Assembly: GCA_016283935.1 (NCBI GenBank)
Contig: JAEENX010000007.1
Span: 13,123-77,122 of the forward strand
Direction of reading: 5' to 3'
DNA: 64,000 nucleotides
Source of the DNA: Bacilli bacterium
Lineage (GTDB): Bacteria > Bacillota_I > Bacilli_A > RF39 > UBA660
Shown here: piece after piece, positions 1,066 through 63,300 of the stretch
Layout of the letters: each line of letters opens with the position of its first letter
How positions within the stretch are numbered: the stretch's first letter is position 1
Program-made: the position numbers and the translations under genes
Notes under the pieces: generated by a model
What the model saw: the letters and a program-made list of their open reading frames with translations, nothing else
The model's database searches: none
What the model was told of the DNA's origin: nothing

Positions 1066-2805
1066 TTATTTTATTTTTATAAATGCTGCCTTATGATATT
1101 TTCTAATAATATAATATGCAGCAATATTAAATATTGTTATTACTATAATAGCAGCAGGTATTAATTCTACACCTGTATTAGGATTTTTATCTGCTTTACT
1201 TTCTTTCTTTTCTTCTTTATTAGTTGATTCGTTAGAACCACTATCTTTTTTACCAGGTTCACTTGGTTCTTCTCCTGTATCTTCATGATACCAAGTAACT
1301 TTATCTCCCATTACTATATCATCTAAAGCATATGTACCATATGCTACATATATTTTTCCATTTTCTACTGCATCAGTAAAGAATGGTAATCTAGTATTTT
1401 CTTTGCAGTTATATAAAACATATCTAAAGTATTTAGCTCCATCAGGTATTTTAAATTTAGCATATTCATATCCTGGGAAATTTTGCACTGATGAAGTTAA
1501 AAATTGTTGATTTTCATCAAAGAAATATACACCATGTAAATTTAATAATGATTTTAATGTTCTATTAGGAGCAGACATTGTTAAATAATCTTGATTAGCA
1601 GGTATTTCTATTAATTCTTCATTAACCCATGTACCCCACCAATTAGGTAAATTATTTTCATCAAAAGCTCCATATTTATCTACTCTCTTAAAATAGAACT
1701 TATCCATTGTATTTAAAACTGTATGTCCATTTTTATTATAATATTTAGTTGGATTAACCATAGCATCTATAAGTTCTGTATTTTTACTAGTTGGATTATT
1801 TCTATTAATAATAGAATATTCTGAACCATTATCCCAATAACATGCTATAATTCCATGTTCATAAGCTCTAGCAACAAAGTTACTATTAGCTAATGCTCTA
1901 TGACTTTTTGGTTCGTAGTCAGTAGTATTACCAAACTCAGTGATCATTACTCTTAATCCTTTTTCAGCAGCACTATCGCTTATTTGAGCAAATGCAGCAT
2001 CTAGTTGTTCATCTTCAATATTTGGATACATATGAACACTTAATATTATTTTATGTTCAACTGAATCAGTTGGAACTGTTACAGCATTTATAGCTTCTTT
2101 ACTATTCTTCATTATCAATGGAGAAATAATTAATAATCTATATCTATTATTGCTTCCTGTTTCTCTTACAGTATCAACAAATATTTGATTTAATTCATTT
2201 ACTTGTCCTTCAGCAACTTCACCTAATACCCAAGAATCTAATTTATTATCTATTTCATTATATGCTTCAAATAACAAATGTTCATCATAATCTTTAAATC
2301 TGGTTGCTATTTGATTCCAAAAGCTATGTGCAACTGATTTAACAGCATCAAATTCAGCAGCATCATTTACTCCTGTATATAATACTTTATCATCATGATG
2401 AGTATTAAGAATTACATACATACCTCTACTATATGCATAATCAACTACTTCTTGTACTCTATTCATCCATTCTTCATGAATAATATAATTACCATTATCA
2501 TCTTTATATGTATGACAATACCAAGAAACTGGTATACGTATTACATTAAAACCACTCTTTTGTATTTCATCAATTAAAGTTTGAGTAATCCTAGGATTAC
2601 CCCATCTTGTTTCAGTTTTTAAATTAGCTGTTCCATCCCATGTAATTGTTGAATCTAATTGATTACCTAAATTCCAACCAACATGAGCTTTTTTAAAGAA
2701 ATCATCATCTGTGAAACTTTCTATTGTTGATGCACTTACTCCCAAAGGTATCAACAATAACATAATAAAAATAAACATAAACTTTTTCATATACACTACC
2801 ACCAT
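1066..2805 (-). CDS. Secreted GH5-family glycoside hydrolase with a C-terminal NPNTG cell-wall sorting signal
   Basis: Signal peptide. GH5 motifs are present (LLFEAYNEI acid/base region, MITEFG nucleophile, NTHHD). C-terminus is ...KNPNTG + hydrophobic segment + RKYHK tail. Confidence 0.75.
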   Translation of the reverse strand: MVVVYMKKFMFIFIMLLLIPLGVSASTIESFTDDDFFKKAHVGWNLGNQLDSTITWDGTANLKTETRWGNPRITQTLIDEIQKSGFNVIRIPVSWYCHTYKDDNGNYIIHEEWMNRVQEVVDYAYSRGMYVILNTHHDDKVLYTGVNDAAEFDAVKSVAHSFWNQIATRFKDYDEHLLFEAYNEIDNKLDSWVLGEVAEGQVNELNQIFVDTVRETGSNNRYRLLIISPLIMKNSKEAINAVTVPTDSVEHKIILSVHMYPNIEDEQLDAAFAQISDSAAEKGLRVMITEFGNTTDYEPKSHRALANSNFVARAYEHGIIACYWDNGSEYSIINRNNPTSKNTELIDAMVNPTKYYNKNGHTVLNTMDKFYFKRVDKYGAFDENNLPNWWGTWVNEELIEIPANQDYLTMSAPNRTLKSLLNLHGVYFFDENQQFLTSSVQNFPGYEYAKFKIPDGAKYFRYVLYNCKENTRLPFFTDAVENGKIYVAYGTYALDDIVMGDKVTWYHEDTGEEPSEPGKKDSGSNESTNKEEKKESKADKNPNTGVELIPAAIIVITIFNIAAYYIIRKYHKAAFIKIK

Positions 2806-2848: not shown

Positions 2849-2884
2849 AAGACTAATAAGTGTAAACACTATTTAGTCTTTTTT
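2849..2884 (-). terminator. Intrinsic terminator downstream of the HExxH gene
   Basis: Hairpin aagactaataagtgt/acactatttagtctt with one mismatch, followed by a U-run on the minus-strand transcript; it encloses the stop codon. Confidence 0.55.
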
Positions 2885-3756
2885 ACATATTCTTTTATTA
2901 ATTCTATATCTTTAGAATTATTATATGTAACACCCATATTATTTAAGAAATCTTCTACTATTATTTTATTTCTAAACACATCTTCTATTAAAGATAATAT
3001 TTCCATTCTTCTTATCTTATTAGAATTAATATAAATATCATATAAATGTAATGCTTTTAATGATGATGATAAATAACATCTATATCTACACATTTGATCA
3101 TATGTATAACATAATTGTTCATATTTAGATAAGCCTTCTAAGCATGTATAAACATCTTGAAATCTATATTTCATATAATCATTTATAATCTTTTTGCTTA
3201 ATGATTTAGATATAATCATTTCGACAAATATAGATAATACTTCACGATTATAATAATTAGTTAATGAATTAGGATTCTTCTCTATTTGAGTATGCACTAT
3301 CTCATGACCTATATCAGCATATGATAGTTTAGTAATTCTATCTTTAATTAATACATTTTCAAATCCTATTTGACCCTTATATATTCCATCTTTTATTTTA
3401 TCTGGATTAACAATAGAACCTTCCATATTAGGTTCAAATTTAATTAATTTAAATGGATTAACTACACTTACACTTCCATCTTTAGAAATATATAATACAT
3501 TTTGAAGAGGCAAATTATCTTTAAAGAATTTCTTATCATACTTCATAACTGTACTTTTACTATCTTTACTATTATCTTTAAAATCTTTAACATTTTGTTC
3601 TTCCAAATACTTTTTAATATCTTTTAAAGAACTATCTAAAACTATTCTAGATTCAATAGAATCTTCTTTCTTTTTAGAAGTTAATTCCATCAAATGAGTA
3701 AATCTATTCATTAATGTTTTATCCATGATAATCACCATTGATGTATATAATAACAC
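2869..3756 (-). CDS. Hypothetical protein with an HExxH motif (putative zinc metallopeptidase)
   Basis: GHEIVHTQ motif; no other recognisable domain. Confidence 0.35.
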   Translation of the reverse strand: MLLYTSMVIIMDKTLMNRFTHLMELTSKKKEDSIESRIVLDSSLKDIKKYLEEQNVKDFKDNSKDSKSTVMKYDKKFFKDNLPLQNVLYISKDGSVSVVNPFKLIKFEPNMEGSIVNPDKIKDGIYKGQIGFENVLIKDRITKLSYADIGHEIVHTQIEKNPNSLTNYYNREVLSIFVEMIISKSLSKKIINDYMKYRFQDVYTCLEGLSKYEQLCYTYDQMCRYRCYLSSSLKALHLYDIYINSNKIRRMEILSLIEDVFRNKIIVEDFLNNMGVTYNNSKDIELIKEYVKKTK

Positions 3757-3804: not shown

Positions 3805-5193
3805 TCACTTACCAATATGCCATATAGCATGATATGTATCACCTTCACATACTGGTATTTCTGCTACAATCAATGGTGAAACAACATCATAATGCATATC
3901 TGAATTATATGATTTAACATTAGCAAAGTATTGAGCTCTTCGTCTACCTGATTTAGCAACATAAATTCCATCACGGATTTTGCAATTTGAGAATCCATAA
4001 AAATCATAATATTCTTCTTCTGATTTTAAAGTTGCTATTTTATCAATTGCATCAGAACTAGTTACTACAATATCTCCTTCACCACAATCACTTTCTATGT
4101 AATTATCTGGTCTTTCATAATCAACATCATAACCAATTTTATTTCTTAGATCCATAGAAGGTTCTACATAAATATCTTCATATTTTCCAAGTGGTATTAT
4201 AACTTTATCATCATAATAGTAATCATGTTCCATGAAATAATAATGAGGAGGAATATCTTCTTTTCTAATAGTCTTTATTAATTGATTATCTGAATATACT
4301 TTTACATATGAATTATCCCCAAATAATGGTTCATCATTGTTGCGAGATATTCTATAAATAGATAAATATGCATTATAATTAGAAATTCCTTCCTTAACCG
4401 TAAAACTAGCAGAATCATATTCTTGAACACTTATAAAACCACTACATGTTAATTTTTCCGAAGCAACTACTTCATTTGAACCAAGGCATATTTCTTTAAC
4501 ATTTGAATCTTCATCAAATGAACCTCTATCAGTTACCAATTTATATTTACAATTTTCAACAGTAATTGTTGAATTTATTTTAATGTTACACTTACATACA
4601 GCTTTTACTATTGTTGGTATTAATATTACTAATGCAAGTGTTAACATCATTGCTCTAAATGTTTTATTCTTCTTGGAAGAATAAATAACAACAAAAGCGA
4701 CTATTAATAATACTGGTAATATATATAACAAAGATTTAACTCCTGTAGGTGGATTTGAAATCTTTCCTCCAGTTAAATCTAAATCAAACGAATTTGTTTC
4801 ATTAAATTTTCCTAAACCAGGATCATTAATTAAAGAAACACTTAATGTAAGTTCTCTTGTCGAACCAGCTTTAACAATCATATTATCTGTTTCAAATAAA
4901 TATTTAACATTTGTATATTTCTTATTAAACATTGATTCATCTAAAACATAATCACCATCAGTATTATTAACAACAGTGATTTTATATTTAATATAATCAT
5001 CTACTCTTGTAAATGAAATATCTAAATCAATAACAGTTCCATTTGCTTTTGCTGGTGTTATTTCAGCTGATCCTTCAGCTTTTTCAATCATTTCAATTGT
5101 TTGAATTGTTACTCCTTCTGTATTACATGTTTCTGCAAATACATTAATTGGAATTAATAATATACTTAAGAATATAATTAATATTTTTTTCAT
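3805..5193 (-). CDS. Surface protein paralog A: signal peptide, Ig-like N-domain, internal NPPTG sorting signal, second TM, Cys-rich C-domain
   Basis: MKKILIIFLSILLIPINVFA signal. ...ISNPPTG VKSLLYILPVLLIVAFVVIYS SKKNK is a complete tripartite sorting signal at aa 150-185. It is followed by the hydrophobic segment MMLTLALVILIPTIVKA and a ~270-aa Cys-rich domain. Confidence 0.7.
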   Translation of the reverse strand: MKKILIIFLSILLIPINVFAETCNTEGVTIQTIEMIEKAEGSAEITPAKANGTVIDLDISFTRVDDYIKYKITVVNNTDGDYVLDESMFNKKYTNVKYLFETDNMIVKAGSTRELTLSVSLINDPGLGKFNETNSFDLDLTGGKISNPPTGVKSLLYILPVLLIVAFVVIYSSKKNKTFRAMMLTLALVILIPTIVKAVCKCNIKINSTITVENCKYKLVTDRGSFDEDSNVKEICLGSNEVVASEKLTCSGFISVQEYDSASFTVKEGISNYNAYLSIYRISRNNDEPLFGDNSYVKVYSDNQLIKTIRKEDIPPHYYFMEHDYYYDDKVIIPLGKYEDIYVEPSMDLRNKIGYDVDYERPDNYIESDCGEGDIVVTSSDAIDKIATLKSEEEYYDFYGFSNCKIRDGIYVAKSGRRRAQYFANVKSYNSDMHYDVVSPLIVAEIPVCEGDTYHAIWHIGK

Positions 5194-5342
5194 ACAAATT
5201 CACCCACTATCATAATTATATTATAAACTATATATACCAATTATTATTATAATAATTAATACTTATACAATTATTTATGTAAATAAAAACATAAAACTAA
5301 ATGTTTTATGTTTTTTATAAACTAGAAATTTGCAGTAGTATC

Positions 5343-6731
5343 TTAGTTATCAGTTGATCTACCATTATACCAAATTGCTTTATATTTGTTTCCAGTACAA
5401 ACTTGATGAGTACTAGTTGTCGAAGCAAATGCCATGTCGGCTGGATATACTGGATTTAGTTCTTCTTGTTCATCTACATCTACACAATTAGTAAATCCAA
5501 CTAATCCATCTTGATCATTTGAATATATTAAATTACTGATTTTTTCATTGATAACTTCACTTGTTACAACATTAGCTCCACTTGGACAACTTCCTTCATA
5601 ATACACTTCTTCTGGATCAGGTCCATGTTCAACAGTATACTCAACTTTATTTCTTAAATCTTTTGAAAGAGTAACATATGCATCATCATATTCACCAATA
5701 GGTATTAGCATATATCTTTCAATTAAATCCAAATATTTTCCATCTTCTAATGAATAATAATGTGGCATTATATCGTCTTTTGTAACAGTTTTAATTAATT
5801 TAGTTTTATTTTCATCAGAATATACTTTTATATATGAATTATCATTAAAAACTGGTTCTATAGTACCGTGATTTTCATATGATAGTATTAAATATAAGTA
5901 TGTATAATCACTTGGAACACGTGCATCACGACTAGTTCCTCTTCTTGATGGAGATCCTTCAAAATAAAATCTAGGTCCCTTACATGTTAGTTTTTCTGAT
6001 GCAACTATTTCATTTGCACCTACACATATTTCTCTAACATCTGATCCTTCTTCAAAAGATCCAATATCAGTAGTTAATTTATATTTACATCCTTCAACAG
6101 TAACTGTTGAATTAATTTTTAAATTACATTTACAAATAGCTTTTACTACTGTAGGTATTGTTATTACTAATGCTAAAATAACAGCAATTGTTTTAAATGA
6201 TGTTTTCTTTTTAGATATAAATAATACTACCAATGAAATTATTATCAATACAGGTAACATATATAATAACGATTTAACTCCTGTAGGTGGATTAACAATC
6301 TCACCACCTGTTAAATCCAAATCAAATGAGTTAGTTTCATTGAATTTATCAACAGTTGGATTCTTAGTTAAAGATATAACTAATGTTAAATCTCTGGCAG
6401 CTCCTGCTTTTACCATTTTATCATCTGTTTCAAAAGTATATTTAACATTTGTATACTTTTTATTAAACATTGATTCATCTAAAACGTAATCTACATCAGT
6501 ATTATTTTTAATTGTAGTTTTATATTTAATATAATCATCTACTCTTGTAAATGATACATCTAAATCTATAACTGTTCCATTTACTTTTGCAGCACTTAAT
6601 TCGGCAGCTCCAGCAGCTTTTTCAATCATTTCAATTGATTGAACAGTAACTCCTTCTGCATTACATGTTTCCGCAAATACATTGATTGGAATTAAAATTA
6701 TACTTAAAAATAAAATTAAAATTTTTTTCAT
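5343..6731 (-). CDS. Surface protein paralog B: same architecture with internal NPPTG, diverged C-domain
   Basis: About 85% identical to paralog A over the first ~230 aa (IVNPPTGVKSLLYMLPVLIIISLVVLFISKKK...), then divergent. The upstream intergenic sequence is also duplicated. Confidence 0.7.
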   Translation of the reverse strand: MKKILILFLSIILIPINVFAETCNAEGVTVQSIEMIEKAAGAAELSAAKVNGTVIDLDVSFTRVDDYIKYKTTIKNNTDVDYVLDESMFNKKYTNVKYTFETDDKMVKAGAARDLTLVISLTKNPTVDKFNETNSFDLDLTGGEIVNPPTGVKSLLYMLPVLIIISLVVLFISKKKTSFKTIAVILALVITIPTVVKAICKCNLKINSTVTVEGCKYKLTTDIGSFEEGSDVREICVGANEIVASEKLTCKGPRFYFEGSPSRRGTSRDARVPSDYTYLYLILSYENHGTIEPVFNDNSYIKVYSDENKTKLIKTVTKDDIMPHYYSLEDGKYLDLIERYMLIPIGEYDDAYVTLSKDLRNKVEYTVEHGPDPEEVYYEGSCPSGANVVTSEVINEKISNLIYSNDQDGLVGFTNCVDVDEQEELNPVYPADMAFASTTSTHQVCTGNKYKAIWYNGRSTDN

Positions 6732-40108: not shown

Positions 40109-40134
40109 AAGGTAGTACTAAATAGTACTACCTT
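40109..40134. terminator. Bidirectional terminator (perfect 12-bp stem)
   Basis: aaggtagtacta-aa-tagtactacctt flanked by T/A runs; it encloses the stop of the convergent 414-aa gene. Confidence 0.65.
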
Positions 40135-41362
40135 CTTTATTTATACAATCATTAAATCCTGAAAATGAACATACTATCCTTGCATTTGCACTTGATAAGT
40201 TGAATGCAGATTCAGTATATGCTCTTATAGTTGTTGATTCAGGACTAAATTCACCATATTTTGTCATATTATATCCAGATATCATAAATACATTATTTGT
40301 AAGATAAATATAATATTCTTTTTCTTCTTTAGTGTTATCAATTAATACAAACCCTCTAATATTAGTTGGATTATTAATATCAGTTGTAACATCATATATG
40401 TATACTTTCTTTTCTGATCCTTTAAAATCAGACTTTACTAACTCTATTACCTTCTTTGCATCTGTATCAAATTCTTTTTTACCACCTGAAGTATTATAAG
40501 TCAGATCATTAAAACTTAAACAATTTTTCTTTCCTCTCATTTGGCATACAGAATGATTATTTAAAGAAGATACAAATCCAGGATCAATATCTAATATAGC
40601 ATTCTTTGATATTGAACCAACATAATTAAAATCTTTTAACATATATTTTTCTGAATATACATAGTAATAGTATTCTATATTACTTAAATCTTCAGCATTT
40701 ATAAGAATATAACCTTTTATACCATTATCTACTTTTAAATCATCTAAAGAAAGAATATAAATACCACTTACACCTATTCCATTTAATTCAGCAATCTTTA
40801 ATTGTAATTCTGAATCTACATTAGATACTTCTCTAATAAATATATCTTTTTCAGTTAAATTAGATTTTATATTTAAAATACCTTTTAATTCAATCGGATT
40901 ACCTTGGCTTTGAGAATTAAATGTAACTTTCAAATAAATAGATGAATTTGGATCAATAGCTAAATTATATGCTAAAGCTTGATCACCTTTTACTTTTTGA
41001 TTATCAACAACAGTATAGTATTTTCCACCCTTTTCATTTGAAGCTTCTATTTTATAATACAATTCTTCATTAGAGACAGAAGAATCATATAATTCTAATG
41101 CATAAGATATTATACTATTATTATAATTTACCACCTTAATATTTTTTTCTAATGTATTATTATAAGATATTTTTTCATCAATCATATTACCAGATGAATA
41201 AGTTACCTTTAAATATTTACCATCTATTTCTATATCTTTAGCAACATCTAATATTTTACTTATTGGTTCAATAGTAACACTATCTTTCATATAAATAAAA
41301 CTAAGTACTAAAACAATTAATATTATACATGCTAATACTATTTTACCAATTTTACCTTTCAT
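40118..41362 (-). CDS. Membrane-anchored extracellular protein (414 aa)
   Basis: N-terminal TM followed by a beta-rich region. Confidence 0.4.
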   Translation of the reverse strand: MKGKIGKIVLACIILIVLVLSFIYMKDSVTIEPISKILDVAKDIEIDGKYLKVTYSSGNMIDEKISYNNTLEKNIKVVNYNNSIISYALELYDSSVSNEELYYKIEASNEKGGKYYTVVDNQKVKGDQALAYNLAIDPNSSIYLKVTFNSQSQGNPIELKGILNIKSNLTEKDIFIREVSNVDSELQLKIAELNGIGVSGIYILSLDDLKVDNGIKGYILINAEDLSNIEYYYYVYSEKYMLKDFNYVGSISKNAILDIDPGFVSSLNNHSVCQMRGKKNCLSFNDLTYNTSGGKKEFDTDAKKVIELVKSDFKGSEKKVYIYDVTTDINNPTNIRGFVLIDNTKEEKEYYIYLTNNVFMISGYNMTKYGEFSPESTTIRAYTESAFNLSSANARIVCSFSGFNDCINKEGSTI

Positions 41363-41403
41363 CTAGCTTCACCTAATATAATTATATACTAAATACCTAT
41401 ATT

Positions 41404-42954
41404 TTAACAAGAATCTTTACTTTTATCTTTTACTTTTAAAATAATAAGAATAATAGATAATACCACAAGTGAAATCCATAAAAAGATTTTTATAATACTT
41501 TTTAAAGTATCTTTTTTATCTTCTTTCTTCTCTTCCTTTTCAATAGTTGAATTTAATGGTTCTACTTCTAATACTTCTTCATCTTCATATGTATTATATG
41601 TTGGAGAAGAATTATTAGATTTTACTTTTAATGAAGTTGTTTTAGTAACTTTAGAAGTAGATTCTTTTGTAGTTATATTAGAAGTAGCTAACATAGTTGT
41701 TACCACTTCATTTTCTACTTTAGAAGATTTTGTACTACTAGTTGTTGTAGTTTTCTTTAACTTTGTTGTAATAGTCTTTGTTGTACTTAATACTTTTGTA
41801 GTTGTTGATTTACTACTAGTCTTTGTTTCTTTTTGTTTAGTAGTTGTTATATTACTTGTTGATGTTGAAGTTGTTGTTTTATTATTCTTAGTTATATTAA
41901 CTTTAACATCTTTTTCAACAATAAAATCATTGTTAAATATAAAATCTACTATATAAGTACCATTCTTAGAATAATCAATATTAGAAACTATAGTAAAGTT
42001 TTCAACAGTACTATAAGTTACTAAATCTTTTAAATCGAAATTACTGGTTGTTATTTGTTTATCAGATATCTTTACTTTATCTCTAATGTGATAATCACGT
42101 AATTCTTTATAATCATCAATATCAATATATTCTTTTATATTATCTACTTCTTCTATTCTTTTATATATTCCAGTAGAAACTTTAGGTTTACTATAACAAT
42201 GATAATAAGTAACATAATCTTTTTCATAACTATTAGCATATTCAGTTCCAACCAAATAACCAACTATAGGAATAATTTCATTTATATATTCCCTATCTTT
42301 AAAATCAATTACATCTGCTAATACTTTTCTTTTTAATACTTCATTATTTTTGTAATAAAAAGTAATAATACCATTTAATTTATCATCAGCTACAGTCTTT
42401 ATCATAAAATCTTTTATAGGAATAGGATCAAACATAAATGTATAAGTTTGATATTGTACAAAATCTTCTTTTGTCTTTTTATTTTCATCAACAACATTAC
42501 TTGTATCACTTGTAACACTTACTTGTTTAGAATTATTAAATATTCTTAATTCAGTAATAGTATTAGGTGCCATATTATAAAATGTTATTTTATTAATATA
42601 TCCATCTTGAGATTCTAAAGATTGATACCATTTTTTACTTCTATCTGATCTAGACCCAACTGTATATGTTGCATATGGTTCATCTTCATACTTGAACTGA
42701 CAACTACTTTCAGGAACAAATCCATCATCATGTTCTATTTCTACTTGAGTATTATAAACTTTATACTCTTCTACTTTTAATAGATCATTTAATTCAAACA
42801 CTTCTGTAGTACCAATTTTATAATCCCTATAATCAGAATAATAAGTACTAATAGCATGCACATTAACAAATGGTATTATTGTTAATACTAATAACCATAA
42901 TCTTTTCATTTTTTTACCTCCTTCTACTTTATATATACACGGTGCACATGCCAT
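41404..42954 (-). CDS. Secreted Thr/Ser-rich surface protein with a C-terminal TM anchor
   Basis: Signal peptide, TTTSTSTSNITTTKQKETKTSSKSTTTK linker, C-terminal TM. Confidence 0.45.
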   Translation of the reverse strand: MACAPCIYKVEGGKKMKRLWLLVLTIIPFVNVHAISTYYSDYRDYKIGTTEVFELNDLLKVEEYKVYNTQVEIEHDDGFVPESSCQFKYEDEPYATYTVGSRSDRSKKWYQSLESQDGYINKITFYNMAPNTITELRIFNNSKQVSVTSDTSNVVDENKKTKEDFVQYQTYTFMFDPIPIKDFMIKTVADDKLNGIITFYYKNNEVLKRKVLADVIDFKDREYINEIIPIVGYLVGTEYANSYEKDYVTYYHCYSKPKVSTGIYKRIEEVDNIKEYIDIDDYKELRDYHIRDKVKISDKQITTSNFDLKDLVTYSTVENFTIVSNIDYSKNGTYIVDFIFNNDFIVEKDVKVNITKNNKTTTSTSTSNITTTKQKETKTSSKSTTTKVLSTTKTITTKLKKTTTTSSTKSSKVENEVVTTMLATSNITTKESTSKVTKTTSLKVKSNNSSPTYNTYEDEEVLEVEPLNSTIEKEEKKEDKKDTLKSIIKIFLWISLVVLSIILIILKVKDKSKDSC

Positions 42955-48704: not shown

Positions 48705-50039
48705 CTAGTTTATTTGGAACATTTTAGTATATCTACCTTCACCTGAATATACATCAGTCATATCTTCAATATATTCATAATTAGTATATAATTTAGAACC
48801 CCTTTGTTTATAACTATATTTAACTGTTCTAACACCATATAGTAATGATTCTGCAATATATAAATATTCATCATCTTTACCAACAAGTAATGCTGTATGA
48901 CCATTTCTAGCTATTACATCGCCTATTTTATATTTATCTGAATTAGCATATTCATATGTTAAATCATGTCTTGGTCCTAAATCAGACATATCTCTAACAT
49001 CTTCTACTATTCCAGCACCAATGTCTCCTACATCAGTTCCACCATTCATAAGTGCCCATGTTACAAATCCTGAACAATCTAATCCATTAGGTTTTTTAGC
49101 TCCAACAGCCCAACCATCTGTATCATCATAATTTGTTAAAGGACATCCCCAAGTAGCTTTCTTTTCTTTAACATAGTCATCATTTATATTTTTATATCTT
49201 GATTCATTTAAATATAATCCTAAATGATGATATCTTCCTTCACCATCTACTTTTCTTTGACCTTCATAATAAGTATCCAATCTTCCATGTTCATAGAAAT
49301 AAGTTACTTTATATGGGAAAGATAAAGTTAAGAATCTAGCTGCAGCAATAGCACCACCTCTAGTACCACGTCCAGCATAATCTACTCTTTCTTTTAATAA
49401 TTCATCTAAATAATCATTTTGTTCTTCAGTATAAACATTACATGTTAATTTTTGTTTTCCTAAATCAAAGACTGGTTTAACAATCATATCAGTAACAGTA
49501 AATTTAGCTGTTTTAGTAATACCATTTGAAGTTTTTGCAGTAATTACTGCATCTCCTTCACTTACTCCATATACTATTCCATTTTCATCAACTGTTACTA
49601 TGCTATCATCACTTGATGAATAATTGATCTTTTTATCAGGTTCACCTATAAAATCAATTGTAGTATCTAACTCAAACTTCTCACCTATAGCAATATGAAA
49701 TGATTCTAAGTTTAAATCCATACTAATGATTTCATTAGCATCTACATTAAAATTGATTTCATCTTCCCTATTAAAGCTTTTAACTTTTAAAGTATAATCT
49801 CCATTTTCCAAATCAAATTTACAACTATTAGAACTAACTCCATTTACAGTACATTCAATTGGAAAAATATTTGGAACATTAACATTTATTGTAACATTTT
49901 TTGTTTTATTATCATTTACACCTACTGCATAAGTAATACTTTTTATACTAATAGGCAAGTTTAAATATCTATAAGTCACATAACATGTACATATAATTGT
50001 TATTATTAATAAAAATATAACTATAACCCTTTTTTTCAT
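48705..50039 (-). CDS. Big_2-domain NlpC/P60 cell-wall hydrolase (start placed at the second Met)
   Basis: Big_2 (IVTVDENGIVYGVSEGDAVITAKT), NlpC/P60 Cys (LDCSGFVTW) and His (GDVIARNGHTALLVG). The ATG at 50039 follows a hairpin; the track start at 50084 lies inside that hairpin. Confidence 0.65.
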   Translation of the reverse strand: MKKRVIVIFLLIITIICTCYVTYRYLNLPISIKSITYAVGVNDNKTKNVTINVNVPNIFPIECTVNGVSSNSCKFDLENGDYTLKVKSFNREDEINFNVDANEIISMDLNLESFHIAIGEKFELDTTIDFIGEPDKKINYSSSDDSIVTVDENGIVYGVSEGDAVITAKTSNGITKTAKFTVTDMIVKPVFDLGKQKLTCNVYTEEQNDYLDELLKERVDYAGRGTRGGAIAAARFLTLSFPYKVTYFYEHGRLDTYYEGQRKVDGEGRYHHLGLYLNESRYKNINDDYVKEKKATWGCPLTNYDDTDGWAVGAKKPNGLDCSGFVTWALMNGGTDVGDIGAGIVEDVRDMSDLGPRHDLTYEYANSDKYKIGDVIARNGHTALLVGKDDEYLYIAESLLYGVRTVKYSYKQRGSKLYTNYEYIEDMTDVYSGEGRYTKMFQIN

Positions 50040-50087
50040 ATAAATCACTACCAATAATTTAGCACATATAAATAGTTTATACAATAT

Positions 50088-50115
50088 AAAAAGAACTATA
50101 AAAATAGTTCTTTTT
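50088..50115 (-). terminator. Hairpin (attenuator-like) between the large SipW-cognate gene and the NlpC/P60 gene
   Basis: aaaaagaactat-aaaa-atagttcttttt. Confidence 0.4.
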
Positions 50116-51670
50116 AATCAAAACTTTCAGATACTTTTTTGACTGTGATATTAGTGAATATTTCATCTAAAGAAACCTCATTAGAATCGAAATCTAATAC
50201 TAATACACCATCATCTCTTGAATCAAATGTTTCACCTACAGCAATCGTATATGAATTAGGTGAATAATACTTATTTTCACTATTAGCTTTAATACTTGTA
50301 GTAGTTATTACACCTGTCATCCTATTTGGTAAATAACTTGCTTGAGCATCAATAGTTACTTTTGGATTTAATGTTAATTCAATAGTCCATTCATTAATAT
50401 CTTCATCAGTAGTATTTTCAATAGTAAATCCAAATCTATAATGTCTAGCCCATCCATTTATTTGTTTAACACTATATGAAACAGTTGGTTCAACTAAATC
50501 ACTTGGATCTACAGGTTCGTCTGGTTCATCAGGTTCATCAGGTTCATCTGGCTCTTCTGGTTCAGCTACTGGATCTCCTTGAGGAGCATAGTTAGTTGAA
50601 TCTGTTTCAATACCAATTGGTCCATTGTAAGTTACAAGAATTGGATCTTCTTGAGTACCACTTCCACCAGCATACATTACGTCTTCTTTTAAATACATTG
50701 TAGGTCTTACGCCATAAGCATAACTAGCTGCAAGCGCATATATATCACCTTGATACATAGTTACAACAGTATCAGCATAACTTGTAGAATATGCAGGACT
50801 AATAGTCCATTCACCATATTGAGTAGCTAACCATGAATTTTTATAACAATCATTACCCATAGCTAATTCATAACACGCATCATCGTCAACAGAATATCCA
50901 AAATCACTTGGATATGGTAAACCAACATAAGTTAATATTGAGGATGGTCTTGAACTATTATCATTACATCTATTATTAAACCAACTTGATCTACATCCTT
51001 TAGGTGATGCATTACCATTTTCAGATTGCATCAAGAATGCAGGAGTCATATAGCTTGGATTATTATCTATTGAATATGGATTAGTACTTCCTAAATTCCA
51101 ATATACTTTTTCAACCATACTAGCAGCTGTAACTGATAATCCTTTATAATCACATTGTTTAGAAGACATTCTACTACCAGTAATACATGTATAATGATTA
51201 TATTCATTATATGATTTATAGTAAAAATTCTTATACAAATAATTATATACTTGAGAAGTTGTAAAATCATTTGTACCATTTCCATTATTATAGTAATAAT
51301 TACTATTCCAAGCTAATCCTTCAACATAATCAGCTCTTGTAATCTTAGTTAATCTTTTTGTTGAATCTTGAGTAGCAACATCAAATGTACCAATTATTCT
51401 CCATAACTCTCCATTATATAAAATATAATTGTTAGGATTTGTTCCTACATATCTAGAAGCATTTCCAACACTTTTAACATCTAATTTTTTAGCTACTTGT
51501 GAGTCAACATACTCAGTTAAACTATTCTTTTTAAATGCTTTAATAACTGCTCCACCAGTTATCATTAATTCAGTATTAAAGGCAGCATAAGAAAAAGTCA
51601 CAACGGATATTGTGACAAAAAACGCGAACATAAAAATTGTATTTCTTATATGTCTGTTCAAAACATTCAC
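50114..51670 (-). CDS. Large secreted protein with a SipW-cognate/TasA-type signal and a (PDE)n repeat
   Basis: N-terminus ...TISVVTFSYAAFNTELMITGGAVIKA compared with the TasA ...TWAAFNDIKSK..ASGTLDL pattern; Y/N/S-rich with Cys pairs; EPEEPDEPDEPDEPDEP repeat. Confidence 0.5.
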   Translation of the reverse strand: MNVLNRHIRNTIFMFAFFVTISVVTFSYAAFNTELMITGGAVIKAFKKNSLTEYVDSQVAKKLDVKSVGNASRYVGTNPNNYILYNGELWRIIGTFDVATQDSTKRLTKITRADYVEGLAWNSNYYYNNGNGTNDFTTSQVYNYLYKNFYYKSYNEYNHYTCITGSRMSSKQCDYKGLSVTAASMVEKVYWNLGSTNPYSIDNNPSYMTPAFLMQSENGNASPKGCRSSWFNNRCNDNSSRPSSILTYVGLPYPSDFGYSVDDDACYELAMGNDCYKNSWLATQYGEWTISPAYSTSYADTVVTMYQGDIYALAASYAYGVRPTMYLKEDVMYAGGSGTQEDPILVTYNGPIGIETDSTNYAPQGDPVAEPEEPDEPDEPDEPDEPVDPSDLVEPTVSYSVKQINGWARHYRFGFTIENTTDEDINEWTIELTLNPKVTIDAQASYLPNRMTGVITTTSIKANSENKYYSPNSYTIAVGETFDSRDDGVLVLDFDSNEVSLDEIFTNITVKKVSESFD

Positions 51671-51673
51671 TTC

Positions 51674-52834
51674 CTATGCATGTCCATTTTGATCTACATA
51701 CCATCTTGTTATTCTATATTTATATAATGTATCTCCTTCAATTATAACAAAGAAACATTTTTGTCCAGGCATTACATTGTAATATAGAATTGGAGATCCT
51801 TCGTTAATAGAAGCATCAACTAATTGTTCAAATGTTTCAGGATATATGATATTAGTATATTTAGATTCATCTATATCTAATTTACCTCTAACTATTACTC
51901 TATCATAATCTTTTAATATTTTACTAACTAGAGATGTATATAAATCTTTAGTTTTAAATCTCTTATATTCTTTTATAAATCTTAAGAATAAATAGATTAC
52001 AACTTCAATTAATATAACAAATATAATAAACATTGGAATGCTTTTAATAGTAAACTTTTTAGTACTTATTAAGAAATCTTGTTTATTAATATTGTTTGAG
52101 TTTTTCTTTATTGAAGTAGTTGCATCTGTTAAAGGAATTTCAATTTCTTGAAGAATATCTCTTTCATATTTCTTATCCATTCCTTCTTTAGTACCTGTTA
52201 CATGAAGATTCATATAAACATATACTTTAGCAGTAGCAGCTATTCTTAAATCTTGTTTAAAATTATTTGCTTTATCTTTATATTTTTGGAAATCTATCGC
52301 TACAGATTCATTTATATTTATACTAGAACCTGTAAGTTTTTGTTTATCTTTAGCTAATTCTACTACATTATCTTCATCATTAGTTAAAGGAGTTTTTTCA
52401 TCAGTATAATCTAATACTACATATTTAGAAGCTATAGTATAACTATATTCTAAATCTAAAGTATCTGGTGAATGGAATTCATAACTAAATGTAGGATTAA
52501 CAGTTTCAATTAAACTAGATGGATAATTCATTCCTGAATTAAGAATAGTATCACTATAGTTTTCATTTTCTTTAATCTTTACTTTATAAGTTACGTTAGC
52601 CATTTCATTATATGATAAACCATCTACTATAGTATTAAATGAAATAGATCTCATAAATAGTGAAACAGTGATTAAAAGGACTACTATCAAAGGTAAAACT
52701 ACACATACAAAGAAACCTGTTGTTGAGTAAGCAGGTTTACCTTTTTTTGTAACTGTATATGAATTGTTTCTACTTTGATATTTCATCTCTTTAGTCATAT
52801 CAGCTATTTCTCCTTCACTAAGTCTCTTAGCCAA
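51674..52834 (-). CDS. Bitopic/2-TM protein with an internal SipW-cognate-like motif; overlaps the peptidase gene by 31 nt
   Basis: A 45-aa cytoplasmic N-tail, a TM, then LFMRSISFNTIVDGLS; a second TM near aa 265; a C-terminal cytoplasmic domain of about 95 aa. Confidence 0.45.
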   Translation of the reverse strand: MAKRLSEGEIADMTKEMKYQSRNNSYTVTKKGKPAYSTTGFFVCVVLPLIVVLLITVSLFMRSISFNTIVDGLSYNEMANVTYKVKIKENENYSDTILNSGMNYPSSLIETVNPTFSYEFHSPDTLDLEYSYTIASKYVVLDYTDEKTPLTNDEDNVVELAKDKQKLTGSSININESVAIDFQKYKDKANNFKQDLRIAATAKVYVYMNLHVTGTKEGMDKKYERDILQEIEIPLTDATTSIKKNSNNINKQDFLISTKKFTIKSIPMFIIFVILIEVVIYLFLRFIKEYKRFKTKDLYTSLVSKILKDYDRVIVRGKLDIDESKYTNIIYPETFEQLVDASINEGSPILYYNVMPGQKCFFVIIEGDTLYKYRITRWYVDQNGHA

Positions 52835-53964
52835 ATAGAAGGTAACCCTAAATATGAAAATTTAAAATCAGTTTTACCCACTATTTCATTCTTAGTAACA
52901 AGCCAATCATCGACAGCTTGTCCATCTCTATCACCTTTTGTGATAAATGATTTTTCTCCGTTATTTTCAATAACTTCGATAATTCTATGAGTATAGTATT
53001 TACCAGATATATTAAATACAATAACATCTCCATTATTTAATTCATTATATCTTGTACTATAACTCTTATCTACAACAATTAAATCTCCGATTTTAATTGT
53101 AGGATCCATAGATCCAGATCCAACAACACAAACCCAAAATCTAAATATATTACTATTTAAACATACCATTGCAATTACTATAATAAATAATATTACACCA
53201 GTAATTTTTGTAACAATATGTTTATTTCTAATATCTTCTTTATTCTTTTTATTCTTCTTAAATATATCTGGAACACCAATATGCAATAATAACATTATTA
53301 TGATAGGAATTAACATATCAACTACTGTTTCAACATACTTTGAAAAACTTGGTATAATTGGTATTACATATCCATATAAATTAAATATACAACTATATAT
53401 TAAAGCAGTCTTTAATCCATGTTTATATGAAATAACAGTTAATCCTATATTCATAAATAAACATTGCATGAATGTTGTAGTAAACAATTTTAAAAATGGT
53501 TCCAAACTTCTTATATCTACGAAGCTATTTCTTGTAGCAAAATCTACAAATGTAAATAATAGTATATTTGCTACCAATATAAATCTATTACATCCACTTC
53601 TTTGATTAATAGTAAATCTACAAAACTCTTCCAATACTATTATTACTAATACTGGAACAACATTTTTAACTATATCAAAGAATTTCAAACTATATGGATT
53701 ATTATAAAATCCTGTAATTAAACCCAAAGAATATTTTAATACTAGAAAGGCAATTGAATAAAATAAACATAATTTCATTGATTGCTTTCCTGTAAATAAA
53801 TTATCTCTTGGAATACTACATGCTATTGCAAGTGAAGTAAGTAATACCATTAAAAATATGATAATACCAAATTCACCTAAAAACTCATGCATTATTGAAT
53901 TAAATAAAAGAATAATTAATGATAATATTTGAATAAAGAATATTTTTCTTTCACCACTTCTCAT
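52804..53964 (-). CDS. 8-TM polytopic domain fused to an ER/archaeal-type (S26B, SipW/Sec11-like) signal peptidase I
   Basis: C-terminal domain has box B VVGSGSMDPTIKIGDLIVV, box C GDVIVFN, box D YTHRII and box E FITKGDRDGQAVDD. It is preceded by eight predicted TM helices with polar intramembrane residues (LEEFCRF, NQRSGCNRF, LLLHIGVPD). Confidence 0.8.
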   Translation of the reverse strand: MRSGERKIFFIQILSLIILLFNSIMHEFLGEFGIIIFLMVLLTSLAIACSIPRDNLFTGKQSMKLCLFYSIAFLVLKYSLGLITGFYNNPYSLKFFDIVKNVVPVLVIIVLEEFCRFTINQRSGCNRFILVANILLFTFVDFATRNSFVDIRSLEPFLKLFTTTFMQCLFMNIGLTVISYKHGLKTALIYSCIFNLYGYVIPIIPSFSKYVETVVDMLIPIIIMLLLHIGVPDIFKKNKKNKEDIRNKHIVTKITGVILFIIVIAMVCLNSNIFRFWVCVVGSGSMDPTIKIGDLIVVDKSYSTRYNELNNGDVIVFNISGKYYTHRIIEVIENNGEKSFITKGDRDGQAVDDWLVTKNEIVGKTDFKFSYLGLPSIWLRDLVKEK

Positions 53965-53987
53965 ATAATCACCCTTTTAATAAAAAT

Positions 53988-54011
53988 AGGTATAACTACA
54001 GAGTTATACCT
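53988..54011 (-). terminator. Intrinsic terminator between the small TasA-like gene and the peptidase gene
   Basis: AGGUAUAACU-cugu-AGUUAUACCU (10-bp stem) followed by AUUUUUAUU. Confidence 0.6.
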
Positions 54012-54031
54012 AATTTCTTTATATAATTAAA

Positions 54032-54652
54032 TTAAGCTTGTCCGTATACTAAAACTGTATCAGAAATTGCTACTGTAACATCTCCAGCTGGTAAATCGTT
54101 AGGATCATTAGTTTCTCTGTATTTAACAGTGATTTTTAATGTCTTAGATCCTGGAGTGTTTAATGATAGTTTAGGTAATACTTCATCAACTAAAATGTCA
54201 GATCCGTCAACATAAGTAGTTGTAACTGTAACTGCGTTTTCCATTTTTTCTTCATCAGCAGCAGCTGCAGTAGGATCAGTTAAGTTACTAGTATATCCAG
54301 TTACTTTTGCTAAAGTAGCACTAGATAATTTAGCATCATAAGTACCCCAGTTTTCAACAGGTACTGTAAATGTAACTTCATCACCAGGAGTTTTTAAAGC
54401 AACATTGAATCCAGTGATAACTGTTTTAGTATCATCTAGTTTTGGTCCACTACCAAAGATTGCAGCAGTTCCAGTTGTTTCAACTTCTCCTATTTCTCCA
54501 AAGTGTACATCCCATTTAGATGCTTCAATTTTTGCTCCAGATGAGATAACTAAAGTTTGTGAAAAAGATGCCCAAACGATAGATACAAATCCGAATACAG
54601 CAGCGATTGCAACGATTGCAACCATTAATGAATTAAATTTTTCTTGTTTCAT
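54032..54652 (-). CDS. Small secreted TasA/camelysin-like protein with a SipW-cognate signal (candidate major fibre subunit)
   Basis: ...AVFGFVSIVWASFSQTLVISSGAKIEA N-terminus; beta-rich 206 aa. GC is about 35% by hand count over two 100-nt stretches. It has its own promoter and terminator. Confidence 0.55.
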   Translation of the reverse strand: MKQEKFNSLMVAIVAIAAVFGFVSIVWASFSQTLVISSGAKIEASKWDVHFGEIGEVETTGTAAIFGSGPKLDDTKTVITGFNVALKTPGDEVTFTVPVENWGTYDAKLSSATLAKVTGYTSNLTDPTAAAADEEKMENAVTVTTTYVDGSDILVDEVLPKLSLNTPGSKTLKITVKYRETNDPNDLPAGDVTVAISDTVLVYGQA

Positions 54653-60648: not shown

Positions 60649-63300
60649 TTAATTTAATGGAATTAAATCAGATGTAATTCTGTTTCCTTGATAATCAAAG
60701 GCATTCATTACAGCTACATATTTAACATCATCTTCAATTTCATTCATAAAGAAATGATAATTTGGATATTTATATGGAACTAATTCATGTCCTATATAAG
60801 TTGGATGTGATTTCCAATCTAATGTATAATGTCCACCTTCATCTGTAATTATATATCTGAAATTCCAGAATTGAACTGTTCTCCAATCTTCTATTTGCCA
60901 TTTTATCTTATTCTTAGATATATCTTCATTTGTTTCTTGTTTTGGAACAATACCATCAACATCTACTTGTCCATCTTTAACATATACTTGAAGATATCCT
61001 AATTCAGAACGATAATTTTTAAATCCATCATCCCAATTTTCCATTCTGGCGGATAAATTATATAAAGTTCCACGGTTAGTAAGTTTTCCTTGGAAAGCCA
61101 TTGCAAATGCAATATCACTTTCTCCATCTTCAGCTTCACCATCATCTTCTGAATCAAAGCATACTATTTTTCTATCATAGAATCCACCTAATTTATTACC
61201 TCTTAATACTACGTTATCTCCTCTAAATACAGGAGTATAATAACCTTCACCCATATCTCTAAATACTAAGTAGAATCCTCTAGCATAATTTTGAGCTTGT
61301 TCATCAGTTAATTCCATAGTAATAACTCTTTCATCCTTATCAAATTCAGATTTCAAAGTACCAGGACTAGATTCAGTATATGATTTAGTAATTGGAGCTC
61401 CATTATATAAATTATAATAATTACTTAAGAAATCATTATAATCTTTAAAATCAGCAAAGAATATTGGATATAATTTAGAAAGTATTAAATCTGTAGTTTC
61501 TTTATCAATATGTAATGGGTAATAAATAGATAATCCAGTTGAATTTTTTAAATTAGAATTACTATATACTACTGCATCAGTAATTGTACTAGATAAATCA
61601 TTAAATCCTAACTTATCACTAAACATTTTTAAATCAATTAAATCGTATCCATTATCTCCAAATTCAAGAGTATCTAATCTACTCTTAGAAAGATTACTAA
61701 ATTGGCTATTTATATCAACTGATTTAAATCTCTCATTTAACTTACTAACAACATTATCTACTTTGGATAAATCTACTAATGATAATGTATAAATAAATTG
61801 TGTTCCTAATTTTTGACTATATTCAGCATTTGAATCAGCAAACGAATTTATAATTTGTTTTCCTAAAGAAATAGAATCAAGTCTAGAAGCATTTTCAAAT
61901 CCCTTATCATATGTCCATCCAAGATTATACTCAGATTCTTCACTTGCAATATAATAACTAGCATATTCATCTAATAAGTTTGCCATTTCGATTGAACCCA
62001 TTAAACATGCATCAAAACCTATAAATTCAAATTTTCTATTTTTATTAAATTTAGTAGCAGCAAGTGCAGTTGCAATTTCATTTGCATATAATCTATCATT
62101 ATTAACTTCATCTACACCGTATCCAATGATTGGTCCACCACCATGATCCCATAAAATCAAATCATAGTATTCTGAATCTGTTATACCATCAACAGTATTA
62201 ATAAATGAGGCTAAAATATTTGGATCACCCATATTTAAGTTACCATTCATTCCAATTTTAGTATATCCACCATCTTTAACATGAAGAATATCTCCATTAT
62301 TAAGACCATCAATACCCCATTGTTTTGATCCACCTAATAATACATAAAAATCTGTAGCATCATCTTTTACTTGAGCCATTTCATAAATGTCTCTAGATGC
62401 AGCATATCCATTTGATTCCAAATCAGTACCTACTAAATATACTAATACTGATCTAGTTATTTTTTTCTTTTCTTCAACAGTTGGTGCTTGTGTTGTAATA
62501 ACTCTTGTTGTAGTTGTTGTAGTTGTTGGTACATATGAAGTTCTTGTTGTTACTCCATGTGTTGTATATACACCACTACTAGTAGTTGTGGTTGTTGTTG
62601 TAGTTGTTGTACTAGTATTCTTTGTTGTAGATTGTTGTGTTGTTTGTTGTGTTGTTTGTTGTGTAGTACTTGGTTTTACAGTTGTTTGGTATGTCGATTG
62701 TGTTGTTGATTGTGTTGTCTTTACTGTTGTTTTTTCAGTAGTGTTTGCCTTAGTTGTTGTTACATATGTAGATCTTGTAGTTGTTGTCGGTGTTGTTACA
62801 GGTCTAGTTGTTTGTGAAACAGTTGTTGATGTAACTTTAGATGTACTTGTAGTTCTAGGTGCTGTAGTTGCAGTAGTATTTGTTATAACTACATCATTAT
62901 CATCAATATAATATGGTACTGCATCATAATTAAATTGATATTCACCTGTATAAATTGATGAATTATTTATTAATTCTCTATTCTTTCTAGTATTTATTAC
63001 TAATGCAATTGTTAATACTATAATAATTGAAATTAATACAACAAACCCTATAATTACAAATAATTTACTATTACTCTTTTTAGGTTCTACAGGAGGTTGT
63101 ACTGGAGCTACTGGTTGAACCGGTTGTTGTACCGGAGTAACACTTTGAGCTATTCCTGCATTTACTGGTTGTTGCATAACACTATTAACTTCTTGTGCAG
63201 TTGGTTGAACTTGAACAAGTGAATTATTCTTTGCTCCACATGTTGGGCAAAATGCAGCATTAACATCATATTGATTATTACAATTTTCACAATTTTTCAT
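60649..63300 (-). CDS. Type-II membrane-anchored clostripain-like (C11) cysteine peptidase with an N-terminal zinc ribbon, Pro/Gln-rich and Thr-rich linkers
   Basis: CENCNN...CPTCG, a TM, a poly-Thr linker, then WDHGGGP (His) and FDACLMGS (Cys) as in peptidase C11. Confidence 0.6.
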   Translation of the reverse strand: MKNCENCNNQYDVNAAFCPTCGAKNNSLVQVQPTAQEVNSVMQQPVNAGIAQSVTPVQQPVQPVAPVQPPVEPKKSNSKLFVIIGFVVLISIIIVLTIALVINTRKNRELINNSSIYTGEYQFNYDAVPYYIDDNDVVITNTTATTAPRTTSTSKVTSTTVSQTTRPVTTPTTTTRSTYVTTTKANTTEKTTVKTTQSTTQSTYQTTVKPSTTQQTTQQTTQQSTTKNTSTTTTTTTTTTSSGVYTTHGVTTRTSYVPTTTTTTTRVITTQAPTVEEKKKITRSVLVYLVGTDLESNGYAASRDIYEMAQVKDDATDFYVLLGGSKQWGIDGLNNGDILHVKDGGYTKIGMNGNLNMGDPNILASFINTVDGITDSEYYDLILWDHGGGPIIGYGVDEVNNDRLYANEIATALAATKFNKNRKFEFIGFDACLMGSIEMANLLDEYASYYIASEESEYNLGWTYDKGFENASRLDSISLGKQIINSFADSNAEYSQKLGTQFIYTLSLVDLSKVDNVVSKLNERFKSVDINSQFSNLSKSRLDTLEFGDNGYDLIDLKMFSDKLGFNDLSSTITDAVVYSNSNLKNSTGLSIYYPLHIDKETTDLILSKLYPIFFADFKDYNDFLSNYYNLYNGAPITKSYTESSPGTLKSEFDKDERVITMELTDEQAQNYARGFYLVFRDMGEGYYTPVFRGDNVVLRGNKLGGFYDRKIVCFDSEDDGEAEDGESDIAFAMAFQGKLTNRGTLYNLSARMENWDDGFKNYRSELGYLQVYVKDGQVDVDGIVPKQETNEDISKNKIKWQIEDWRTVQFWNFRYIITDEGGHYTLDWKSHPTYIGHELVPYKYPNYHFFMNEIEDDVKYVAVMNAFDYQGNRITSDLIPLN

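Follow-up and report, generated by a model that had tools for sequence, protein, structure and literature searches.

A candidate double-cleavage cassette built around an internal class-B-type sorting signal in a large family of predicted surface proteins from uncultured low-GC bacteria

What becomes of a protein that carries a complete sortase sorting signal in its middle, with a further domain behind it? The question is raised by two tandem paralogous genes in a stretch of 64,000 nucleotides from a Bacilli bacterium (assembly GCA_016283935.1, contig JAEENX010000007.1, positions 13,123 to 77,122 of the forward strand), hereafter the window, to which positions given without a locus name refer. 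Copy A (3805..5193) and copy B (5343..6731), both on the minus strand, as are the other window features given here with coordinates, each encode 462 amino acids (aa) plus a stop codon, and in both proteins the sorting signal is not at the extreme C-terminus, 282 residues following its basic tail. That this architecture is real and conserved we hold with near certainty. The N-terminal cassette is best read as a signal peptide, an immunoglobulin-like (Ig-like) domain, a sorting signal of the class B type and a putative second, cleavable signal peptide, behind which stands a variable C-terminal part, the passenger. Among uncultured low-GC bacteria, the layout marks a protein family that is large and has gone unannotated.

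Copy A opens with signal peptide 1 (residues 1 to 20, ...LLIPINVFA/ETC, the slash standing at the predicted cut; 5134..5193), which is followed by the Ig-like N-domain (residues 21 to 146, including Cys23; 4756..5133), a beta-sandwich in the AlphaFold model. The conserved NPPTG motif (residues 147 to 151; 4741..4755), a predicted class B sortase site with the cut at T150/G151, precedes hydrophobic segment 1 of the sorting signal (residues 152 to 173; 4675..4740), the basic loop KKNKTFR, predicted to be cytoplasmic (residues 174 to 180; 4654..4674), and a second, signal-peptide-like segment (residues 181 to 198, ...VILIPTIVKA/VCKC; 4600..4653). The passenger begins with a beta-strand (residues 199 to 214, VCKCNIKINSTITVEN, including Cys200; 4552..4599), and its remainder (residues 215 to 462; 3808..4551) has no known family in Pfam, NCBIfam and structure searches. 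Copy B, placed by the list of open reading frames (ORFs), alignment to copy A and a motif scan, repeats the arrangement: NPPTG (residues 147 to 151; 6279..6293), a hairpin (6138..6278) made up of hydrophobic segment 1 (6213-6278), the basic loop KKKTSFK (6192-6212) and the signal-peptide-like segment 2 ending VKA/ICKC (6138-6191), and the passenger (residues 199 to 462; 5346..6137). An N-terminal Sec signal peptide is present in both copies (MKKIL...INVFA/ETC; MKKILIIFLSILLIPINVFA/ETC), with its consensus kept across the family. Neither the N-domain nor the passenger of either copy is matched by a Pfam or NCBIfam model, the DUF285 and PARCEL repeat models PF03382 and TIGR02167 included.

This order of elements, given in a preliminary description of the locus, was confirmed in both ORFs, and some of the accompanying measures have to be revised. 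The two proteins are 55% identical overall (pairwise alignment, 462 aa each), and the region-wise comparison gave 75% for the N-domains, which had been put at about 85%, and likewise 75% for residues 199 to 250. Good conservation thus reaches to about residue 250, and the divergence ascribed to the C-domains as a whole applies to residues 251 to the end only, where identity falls to 32%. The passenger, introduced as a Cys-rich domain of ~270 aa, measures 264 aa, and with about eight cysteines in each copy the epithet is a generous one; the upstream regions, said to be duplicated, have nothing in common beyond the ribosome-binding region and a short block rich in T. As to the genes themselves, intact ORFs, identical or orthologous, were found in the independent assemblies ERZ28653461, ERZ28018973, GCA_016295045.1 and GCA_016648615.1, in the same gene order (valyl-tRNA synthetase, copy B, copy A, an ORF of 273-295 aa, a GH5 enzyme, lysyl-tRNA synthetase). 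Both ORFs are therefore genuine and not an assembly artefact, as the preliminary description had argued.

Support for a complete sorting signal in the middle of these proteins comes from the family as well as from within the window. Residues were counted over 184 aligned members, and a separate regular-expression survey found 179 motifs. In the alignment, the N, P and T of NPxT are kept in 178, 183 and 182 sequences, respectively; among the surveyed motifs NPNTG, NPKTG and NPPTG are the commonest forms, and the fifth position is G in 120 and otherwise mostly S, K or N. In the sequences analyzed, hydrophobic segment 1 spans 19-23 residues and the basic loop 3-8 residues, with a net charge mostly between +3 and +5; segment 2 ends 45-48 residues on, counting from the position that follows Thr. 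N, P and T, together with the Ala at position -1 of the second predicted cut, are near-invariant down to ~25% identity, while the helices themselves drift. A direct comparison is offered by the GH5 enzyme of the window (gene at 1066-2805; stop-to-stop frame of 583 residues, 1069-2817), which stops right after its basic tail: its genuine C-terminal sorting signal (NPNTG, a hydrophobic stretch and an RKYHK tail; 1069..1185), identified by motif scan and profile alignment and already remarked upon earlier, aligns over residues 542-581 with positions 148-186 of the family profile. When all window ORFs were scanned by regular expression for a sortase motif with a hydrophobic tail, copy A, copy B and this enzyme were recovered, the sole other match being an LPGTG within a multi-pass membrane protein. 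In addition, the NCBIfam LPXTG_anchor model matches 6 and the IsdC model 3 of the 108 family members over which domain libraries were counted; the table of these matches gives no matched residues, and we infer that they fall on the internal signal. Taken as a sequence pattern, the internal segment is thus supported as a complete sorting signal, of the same form and length as that of the GH5 enzyme, and its cleavage by a sortase is probable.

How widespread the layout is became apparent from a profile of the N-terminal module (alignment A3), searched against 1.84 billion cluster representatives (clusters at 50% identity): 2021 matches were obtained at E<=1e-3 and 796 at E<=1e-30. Each of the 150 best matches contains the module in full within a single ORF, the proteins being 209-983 aa long. 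The survey of homologues that the preliminary description had called for thus finds the module matched in 2021 cluster representatives, and, of the 115 module-bearing ORFs in the 77 loci over which ORFs and loci were counted, none ends after the basic tail, so that the two halves do not occur there as separate genes. A stand-alone N-terminal half as the ancestral form was accordingly rejected, none being found among these ORFs. A homologue search returned 40 relatives; in those similar over the first 45% of the protein only, the entire N-terminal module is kept and joined to other C-terminal domains, often DUF285/BspA-like repeats. A word-indexed search with the module profile added few members, and a scan of species-representative genomes yielded one locus, L003. 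No Pfam or NCBIfam model covers the module in the window copies or the 108 members. Between 41 and 777 residues follow the internal signal in family members, and the passenger types found in relatives are DUF285/PARCEL, BspA-type leucine-rich repeats, Cna_B and DUF6273, with DUF285/PARCEL or BspA-type repeats in 19 of the 108; these are extracellular adhesin types and would fit an exported passenger. Tandem arrays are common across the 77 loci, with up to five or six paralogues, and the combination of a constant 5' cassette, variable 3' ends and tandem paralogues would suit a rapid shuffling of surface specificities.

Some members deserve mention in their own right. In locus L005 (1-19000), at least six tandem members of the DUF285 type lie beside genes for an integrase, a Mob/Pre relaxase and a DnaB-like helicase, and the array borders a mobile element. 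In protein P0037 (423 aa), the N-domain runs directly into DUF285 repeats, with neither NPxTG nor hairpin, and it is a deletion or pseudogene-like form. The passenger region of one member (alignment A4) matches intein N-terminal splicing and RtcB-related intein models and may represent a Hint-type domain in a surface protein.

The second hydrophobic segment holds the key to what follows the sorting signal. Its end, IPTIVKA in copy A and IPTVVKA in copy B, with the passenger starting VCKC or ICKC, is the best-conserved part of the module after NPxT: Ala occupies position -1 in 180 of the 184 sequences, position -3 is V, I, A or T, and Pro stands at -6 in 168. The N-terminal signal peptide has the identical consensus, I-P-x-x-V-x-A, around its own cut. 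Between the basic loop and the Pro lies a hydrophobic core of only ~12 residues; in copy A, judged as a signal peptidase I substrate, the segment has an n-region (KKNKTFR), 12 hydrophobic residues and a c-region (PTIVKA). In copy A the basic loop does double duty, as the charged tail that completes the sorting signal and as n-region for the putative signal peptide 2. The second segment thus looks like a cleavable signal peptide, built, with its n-, h- and c-regions, as signal peptidase I substrates are. Because it has the c-region of the protein's own N-terminal signal peptide, the hairpin is more likely to be excised than to serve as an anchor, contrary to the C-domain anchored by two transmembrane helices that was first envisaged, and we consider it likely that signal peptidase does cut at this point. 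Lipoprotein processing of Cys23 or Cys200 was ruled out, neither being at +1 of a lipobox.

If both cuts are made, what would keep the passenger on the cell? At the predicted sites, Cys23 lies three residues past the first cut and Cys200 two past the second. Both cysteines are present in 169 of the 184 sequences, both are absent in 10, and 5 are discordant; by mutual information with average product correction, the pair ranks 15th of all and first among those linking the two halves. When residues 1-230 were modeled alone by AlphaFold (108 sequences), the predicted local distance difference test (pLDDT) score was 93-98 for the N-domain and ~95 for strand 201-213, for which the N-domain is the main beta partner available in that model, besides two short strands at 219-226. 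The full-length model has a mean pLDDT of 72.7 with a confident C-domain at residues 290-410, for which Foldseek found no significant neighbor in the PDB; over both domains it returned generic Ig-like and MSP-like matches only, at E ~1e-3 or weaker, and no fold was assigned. These models, read together with the co-variation, would be compatible with a clamp in which the passenger is held to the N-domain by its first beta-strand and a Cys23-Cys200 bond, a proposition to which we give an even chance. A pilin-like Lys nucleophile was ruled out, Lys201 being present in 139 of the 184 members and hence not invariant.

Enzymes suited to the motif are encoded near members in related genomes. In L003, a 351-aa protein (L003 19535-20590), 8 kb downstream of a family member, matches Staphylococcus aureus SrtB (tblastn 5e-20) and the class B sortase model TIGR03064 (7e-42; 143 bits, with the cut-off at 153.75), and carries the His and LVTC Cys motifs. 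Immediately behind it comes the gene of a secreted protein, small and acidic, whose C-terminus reads PVPKTG, hydrophobic stretch, RKK. L001 is the window's closest relative; at the corresponding position (L001 21269) it shows the start of a 370-aa orthologue that shares the N-terminal sequence MKKKKRRLSNG..., and from synteny with L001 and L003 the window organism's own sortase is expected ~5.6 kb past the left end of the window. At the unrelated locus L056, a canonical SrtB with TLSTC is encoded 2.5 kb downstream of a family member. Together with the retention of NPxT in more than 2000 clusters, these neighbors support the earlier assignment of NPxTG to the motifs of class B sortases. The window also encodes a PASTA-domain kinase, which argues that its organism has peptidoglycan. 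As separate observations, the L003 sortase has an N-terminal extension of ~130 aa with an acidic stretch, and behind its gene the region L003 19535-21446 holds a tandem pair of genes whose products are small, acidic and secreted, the PVPKTG protein being the first of them.

From the observed anatomy, the sortases near relatives and the co-variation of the cysteines, we infer the cleavages, the wall linkage and the clamp that make up the following scheme, numbered for copy A. Signal peptide 1 would start Sec export; the helix of the sorting signal would stop transfer, leaving the basic loop in the cytoplasm, and the second hydrophobic segment would restart export, so that both N-domain and passenger come to lie outside. 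Signal peptidase I would cut after VFA (residue 20) and after VKA (residue 198), and a class B sortase would cut at T150/G151 and join the 130-residue N-domain to peptidoglycan, with the 48-residue hairpin (G151-A198) remaining in the membrane. The passenger (V199 to the end) would be retained, its first beta-strand docking on the N-domain sandwich and Cys200 pairing with Cys23, and would be displayed on the wall via its N-terminal end with the C-terminus free.

As an account of the whole, in which sortase anchors the N-domain, signal peptidase frees the passenger, the hairpin is discarded and the passenger stays clamped, this scheme is our best explanation, favored by a little more than an even chance. 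Several points weigh against it. All processing steps rest on sequence patterns, models and analogy, and the Cys23-Cys200 contact and the docking of the strand are deduced from pLDDT and co-variation only. The co-occurrence of the two cysteines (Fisher p 1e-12) was calculated without correction for phylogeny and is inflated by shared ancestry, and extracellular disulfides are not a given in anaerobic gut bacteria. There is no sortase gene in the 64-kb window, that of the window organism being placed solely by the synteny with L001 and L003, and no more than 2-3 independent loci have a sortase close to a family member, a weak genomic association. Finally, about one-third of the family has S, K or N in place of the G at motif position 5; class B motifs include forms such as NPQTN, with which these residues are compatible, though this is not proof. 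The missing sortase gene and the variable fifth position would equally suit a single-piece protein held in the membrane by its two helices with both domains outside, NPxTG being structural or vestigial and helix 2 having an AxA-like end that goes unused. The topology of such a protein hangs together (a signal peptide, one helix running out-to-in, the basic loop, one helix running in-to-out). However, it does not account for the near-invariance of N, P, T and the -1 Ala among drifting helices, for the true signal peptide c-region and short hydrophobic core of helix 2, or for the match of the motif region to the genuine sorting signal of the adjoining GH5 enzyme, and we regard an uncleaved anchor as unlikely. 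No more probable is the partial processing first proposed for this locus, in which sortase anchors the N-domain to the wall, helix 2 stays uncut and the C-domain remains on the hairpin or on an N-terminal signal anchor; it draws on the same evidence for a sortase signal as our preferred scheme but leaves unexplained both the -1, -3 and -6 residues that helix 2 has in common with signal peptide 1 and the co-varying Cys pair just past both predicted cut sites.

The opposite departure from the scheme of two cuts and a clamp is that both cuts are made and the passenger is secreted or only loosely bound, the wall-bound N-domain having a function of its own. Papers on the streptococcal IgA1 proteases do mention attachment to the cell and then release, and contact between the halves is a prediction; yet it is hard to see why independent products should stay fused in 115 of 115 ORFs, and the first passenger strand is confidently modeled beside the N-domain, with a Cys pair that co-varies. 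We therefore rate release as somewhat less probable still. A further reading retains the excision of the hairpin and alters the fate of the N-domain: sortase would ligate Thr150 not to the wall but to an amine of the passenger, either its new N-terminus at 199 or Lys201, rejoining the halves outside in what would amount to sortase-driven protein splicing. Both ends are predicted to come together at the membrane surface beside the co-varying Cys pair, but specific support is lacking and Lys201 occurs in only 139 of the 184 sequences, which makes ligation to the passenger, and splicing with it, a distinctly improbable outcome. A frameshift, mis-assembly or recent accidental fusion of two genes can be practically dismissed, given intact identical or orthologous ORFs in four independent assemblies and a fused module common to more than 2000 cluster representatives.

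That sorting signals are by definition C-terminal, the premise on which the locus first appeared anomalous, does not hold. The streptococcal M26 zinc metalloproteases (IgA1 protease/ZmpA, ZmpB, ZmpC and ZmpD) have an atypical N-terminal LPXTG region with the layout of this family, and the order of signal peptide, sortase motif, a pair of hydrophobic segments, a second signal-peptidase site (here predicted) and passenger is common to both (PMC3518915). In the Zmp proteins, the role proposed for the second hydrophobic segment is that of an additional signal peptide (PMC3518915), and a cut has been reported 56 residues downstream of the motif (PMC9637739), compared with the 48 predicted here. The Zmp proteins have LPXTG, sortase A and a signal peptide of the YSIRK type, whereas the present family has NPxTG, class B sortase neighbors and an MKKIL... 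signal peptide without YSIRK. Ahead of the motif, Zmp proteins are not known to have more than a short stretch, in contrast to the folded Ig-like domain found here; a further difference is the co-varying Cys pair and docking strand that may hold the halves together, and the G5 and M26 domains of Zmp have no Pfam or NCBIfam match in the present proteins. The present family is also far larger, with variable passengers. Searches of the literature for internal sorting signals or internal LPXTG under those names found nothing, and the layout was previously known only from the streptococcal IgA1 protease/Zmp proteins, being found here with a different motif and predicted sortase class.

Likenesses to other systems are partial. 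Canonical class B substrates, of which IsdC, with NPQTN or NPKTG, is one, and the NPNTG-ending GH5 enzyme share with the family the signal peptide, NPxT[GN], ~20 hydrophobic residues and basic tail, but in the canonical substrates the signal is C-terminal. BspA-like/DUF285/PARCEL surface proteins of Mollicutes and Firmicutes are built of the repeats that serve some members as passenger; the two passengers of the window are unrelated to them, and the N-terminal cassette is part of no DUF285 or PARCEL model. The Clostridioides difficile S-layer precursor SlpA likewise gives rise to two associated extracellular chains that stay on the surface. However, its cut is made by a secreted protease, with neither a sortase motif nor an excised membrane hairpin, and the likeness is one of analogy only.

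The odd N-terminal anchor of the streptococcal IgA1 proteases is, on this evidence, not a one-off; the layout looks more like a general plan that came about with another class of sortase as well. The Zmp proteins pose, as we read it, a puzzle, in that the passenger ought to come loose once the motif is cut and yet remains cell-bound; a beta-strand donated to a wall-linked domain, together with a disulfide, could hold it and is a possible answer. Sortase substrates are usually sought by C-terminal sorting signals, and such searches would therefore miss this family of more than 2000 clusters, for whose cassette Pfam and NCBIfam have no model. If such a clamp is indeed at work, the cassette would be a natural N-terminal tag for wall display with a free C-terminus, useful for engineering, and would mark arrays of variable adhesins in uncultured Bacilli of low GC content.

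Diversifying selection had been suggested as the cause of the divergence between the C-domains. Crude Nei-Gojobori estimates of the ratio of nonsynonymous to synonymous substitution rates against the L001 orthologues, based on small counts, gave 2.18 (few changes) for residues 251 to the end of copy A and 0.42 for those of copy B, compared with 0.25 and 0.18, respectively, for residues 1-146 (N-domain with signal peptide), a weak hint of faster evolution of the C-domain. Synonymous divergence between copy A and L001 11515-12915 is 0.24 in codons 1-146 and 0.03-0.04 elsewhere, a pattern that suggests recombination or gene conversion within the N-domain of copy A. With counts this small and with these signs of recombination, diversifying selection in the C-domains is not established and is considered only possible.

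Among the neighboring genes, an ORF of 295 aa that separates the GH5 gene from copy A (2869-3756) contains an HEIVH (HExxH) metalloprotease-like motif and has neither a signal peptide nor a Pfam or NCBIfam match. L001 and L003 keep it in the same place, at 273 and 295 aa, respectively; a role as dedicated partner of the family was nevertheless ruled out, the ORF being kept only in close relatives and not beside distant arrays. Farther along the window, adjoining ORFs of 414 and 516 aa (40118-42954) have no family match, the latter with a signal peptide, a C-terminal hydrophobic anchor and a KDKSKD tail and without a sortase motif. The region 48705-54652 may be a dedicated secretion or fiber cluster: it encodes a signal peptidase I domain of the SipW/archaeal type joined to ~250 aa of membrane region (52804-53964; TIGR02228, 3.9e-21), neighbors whose N-terminal signal sequences are long and TasA-like (54032-54652 and 50114-51670), and a protein that combines Big_2 with NlpC/P60 (48705-50084). 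Finally, an 883-aa protein (60649-63300) combines an N-terminal zinc ribbon with a clostripain-family (Peptidase_C11) domain.

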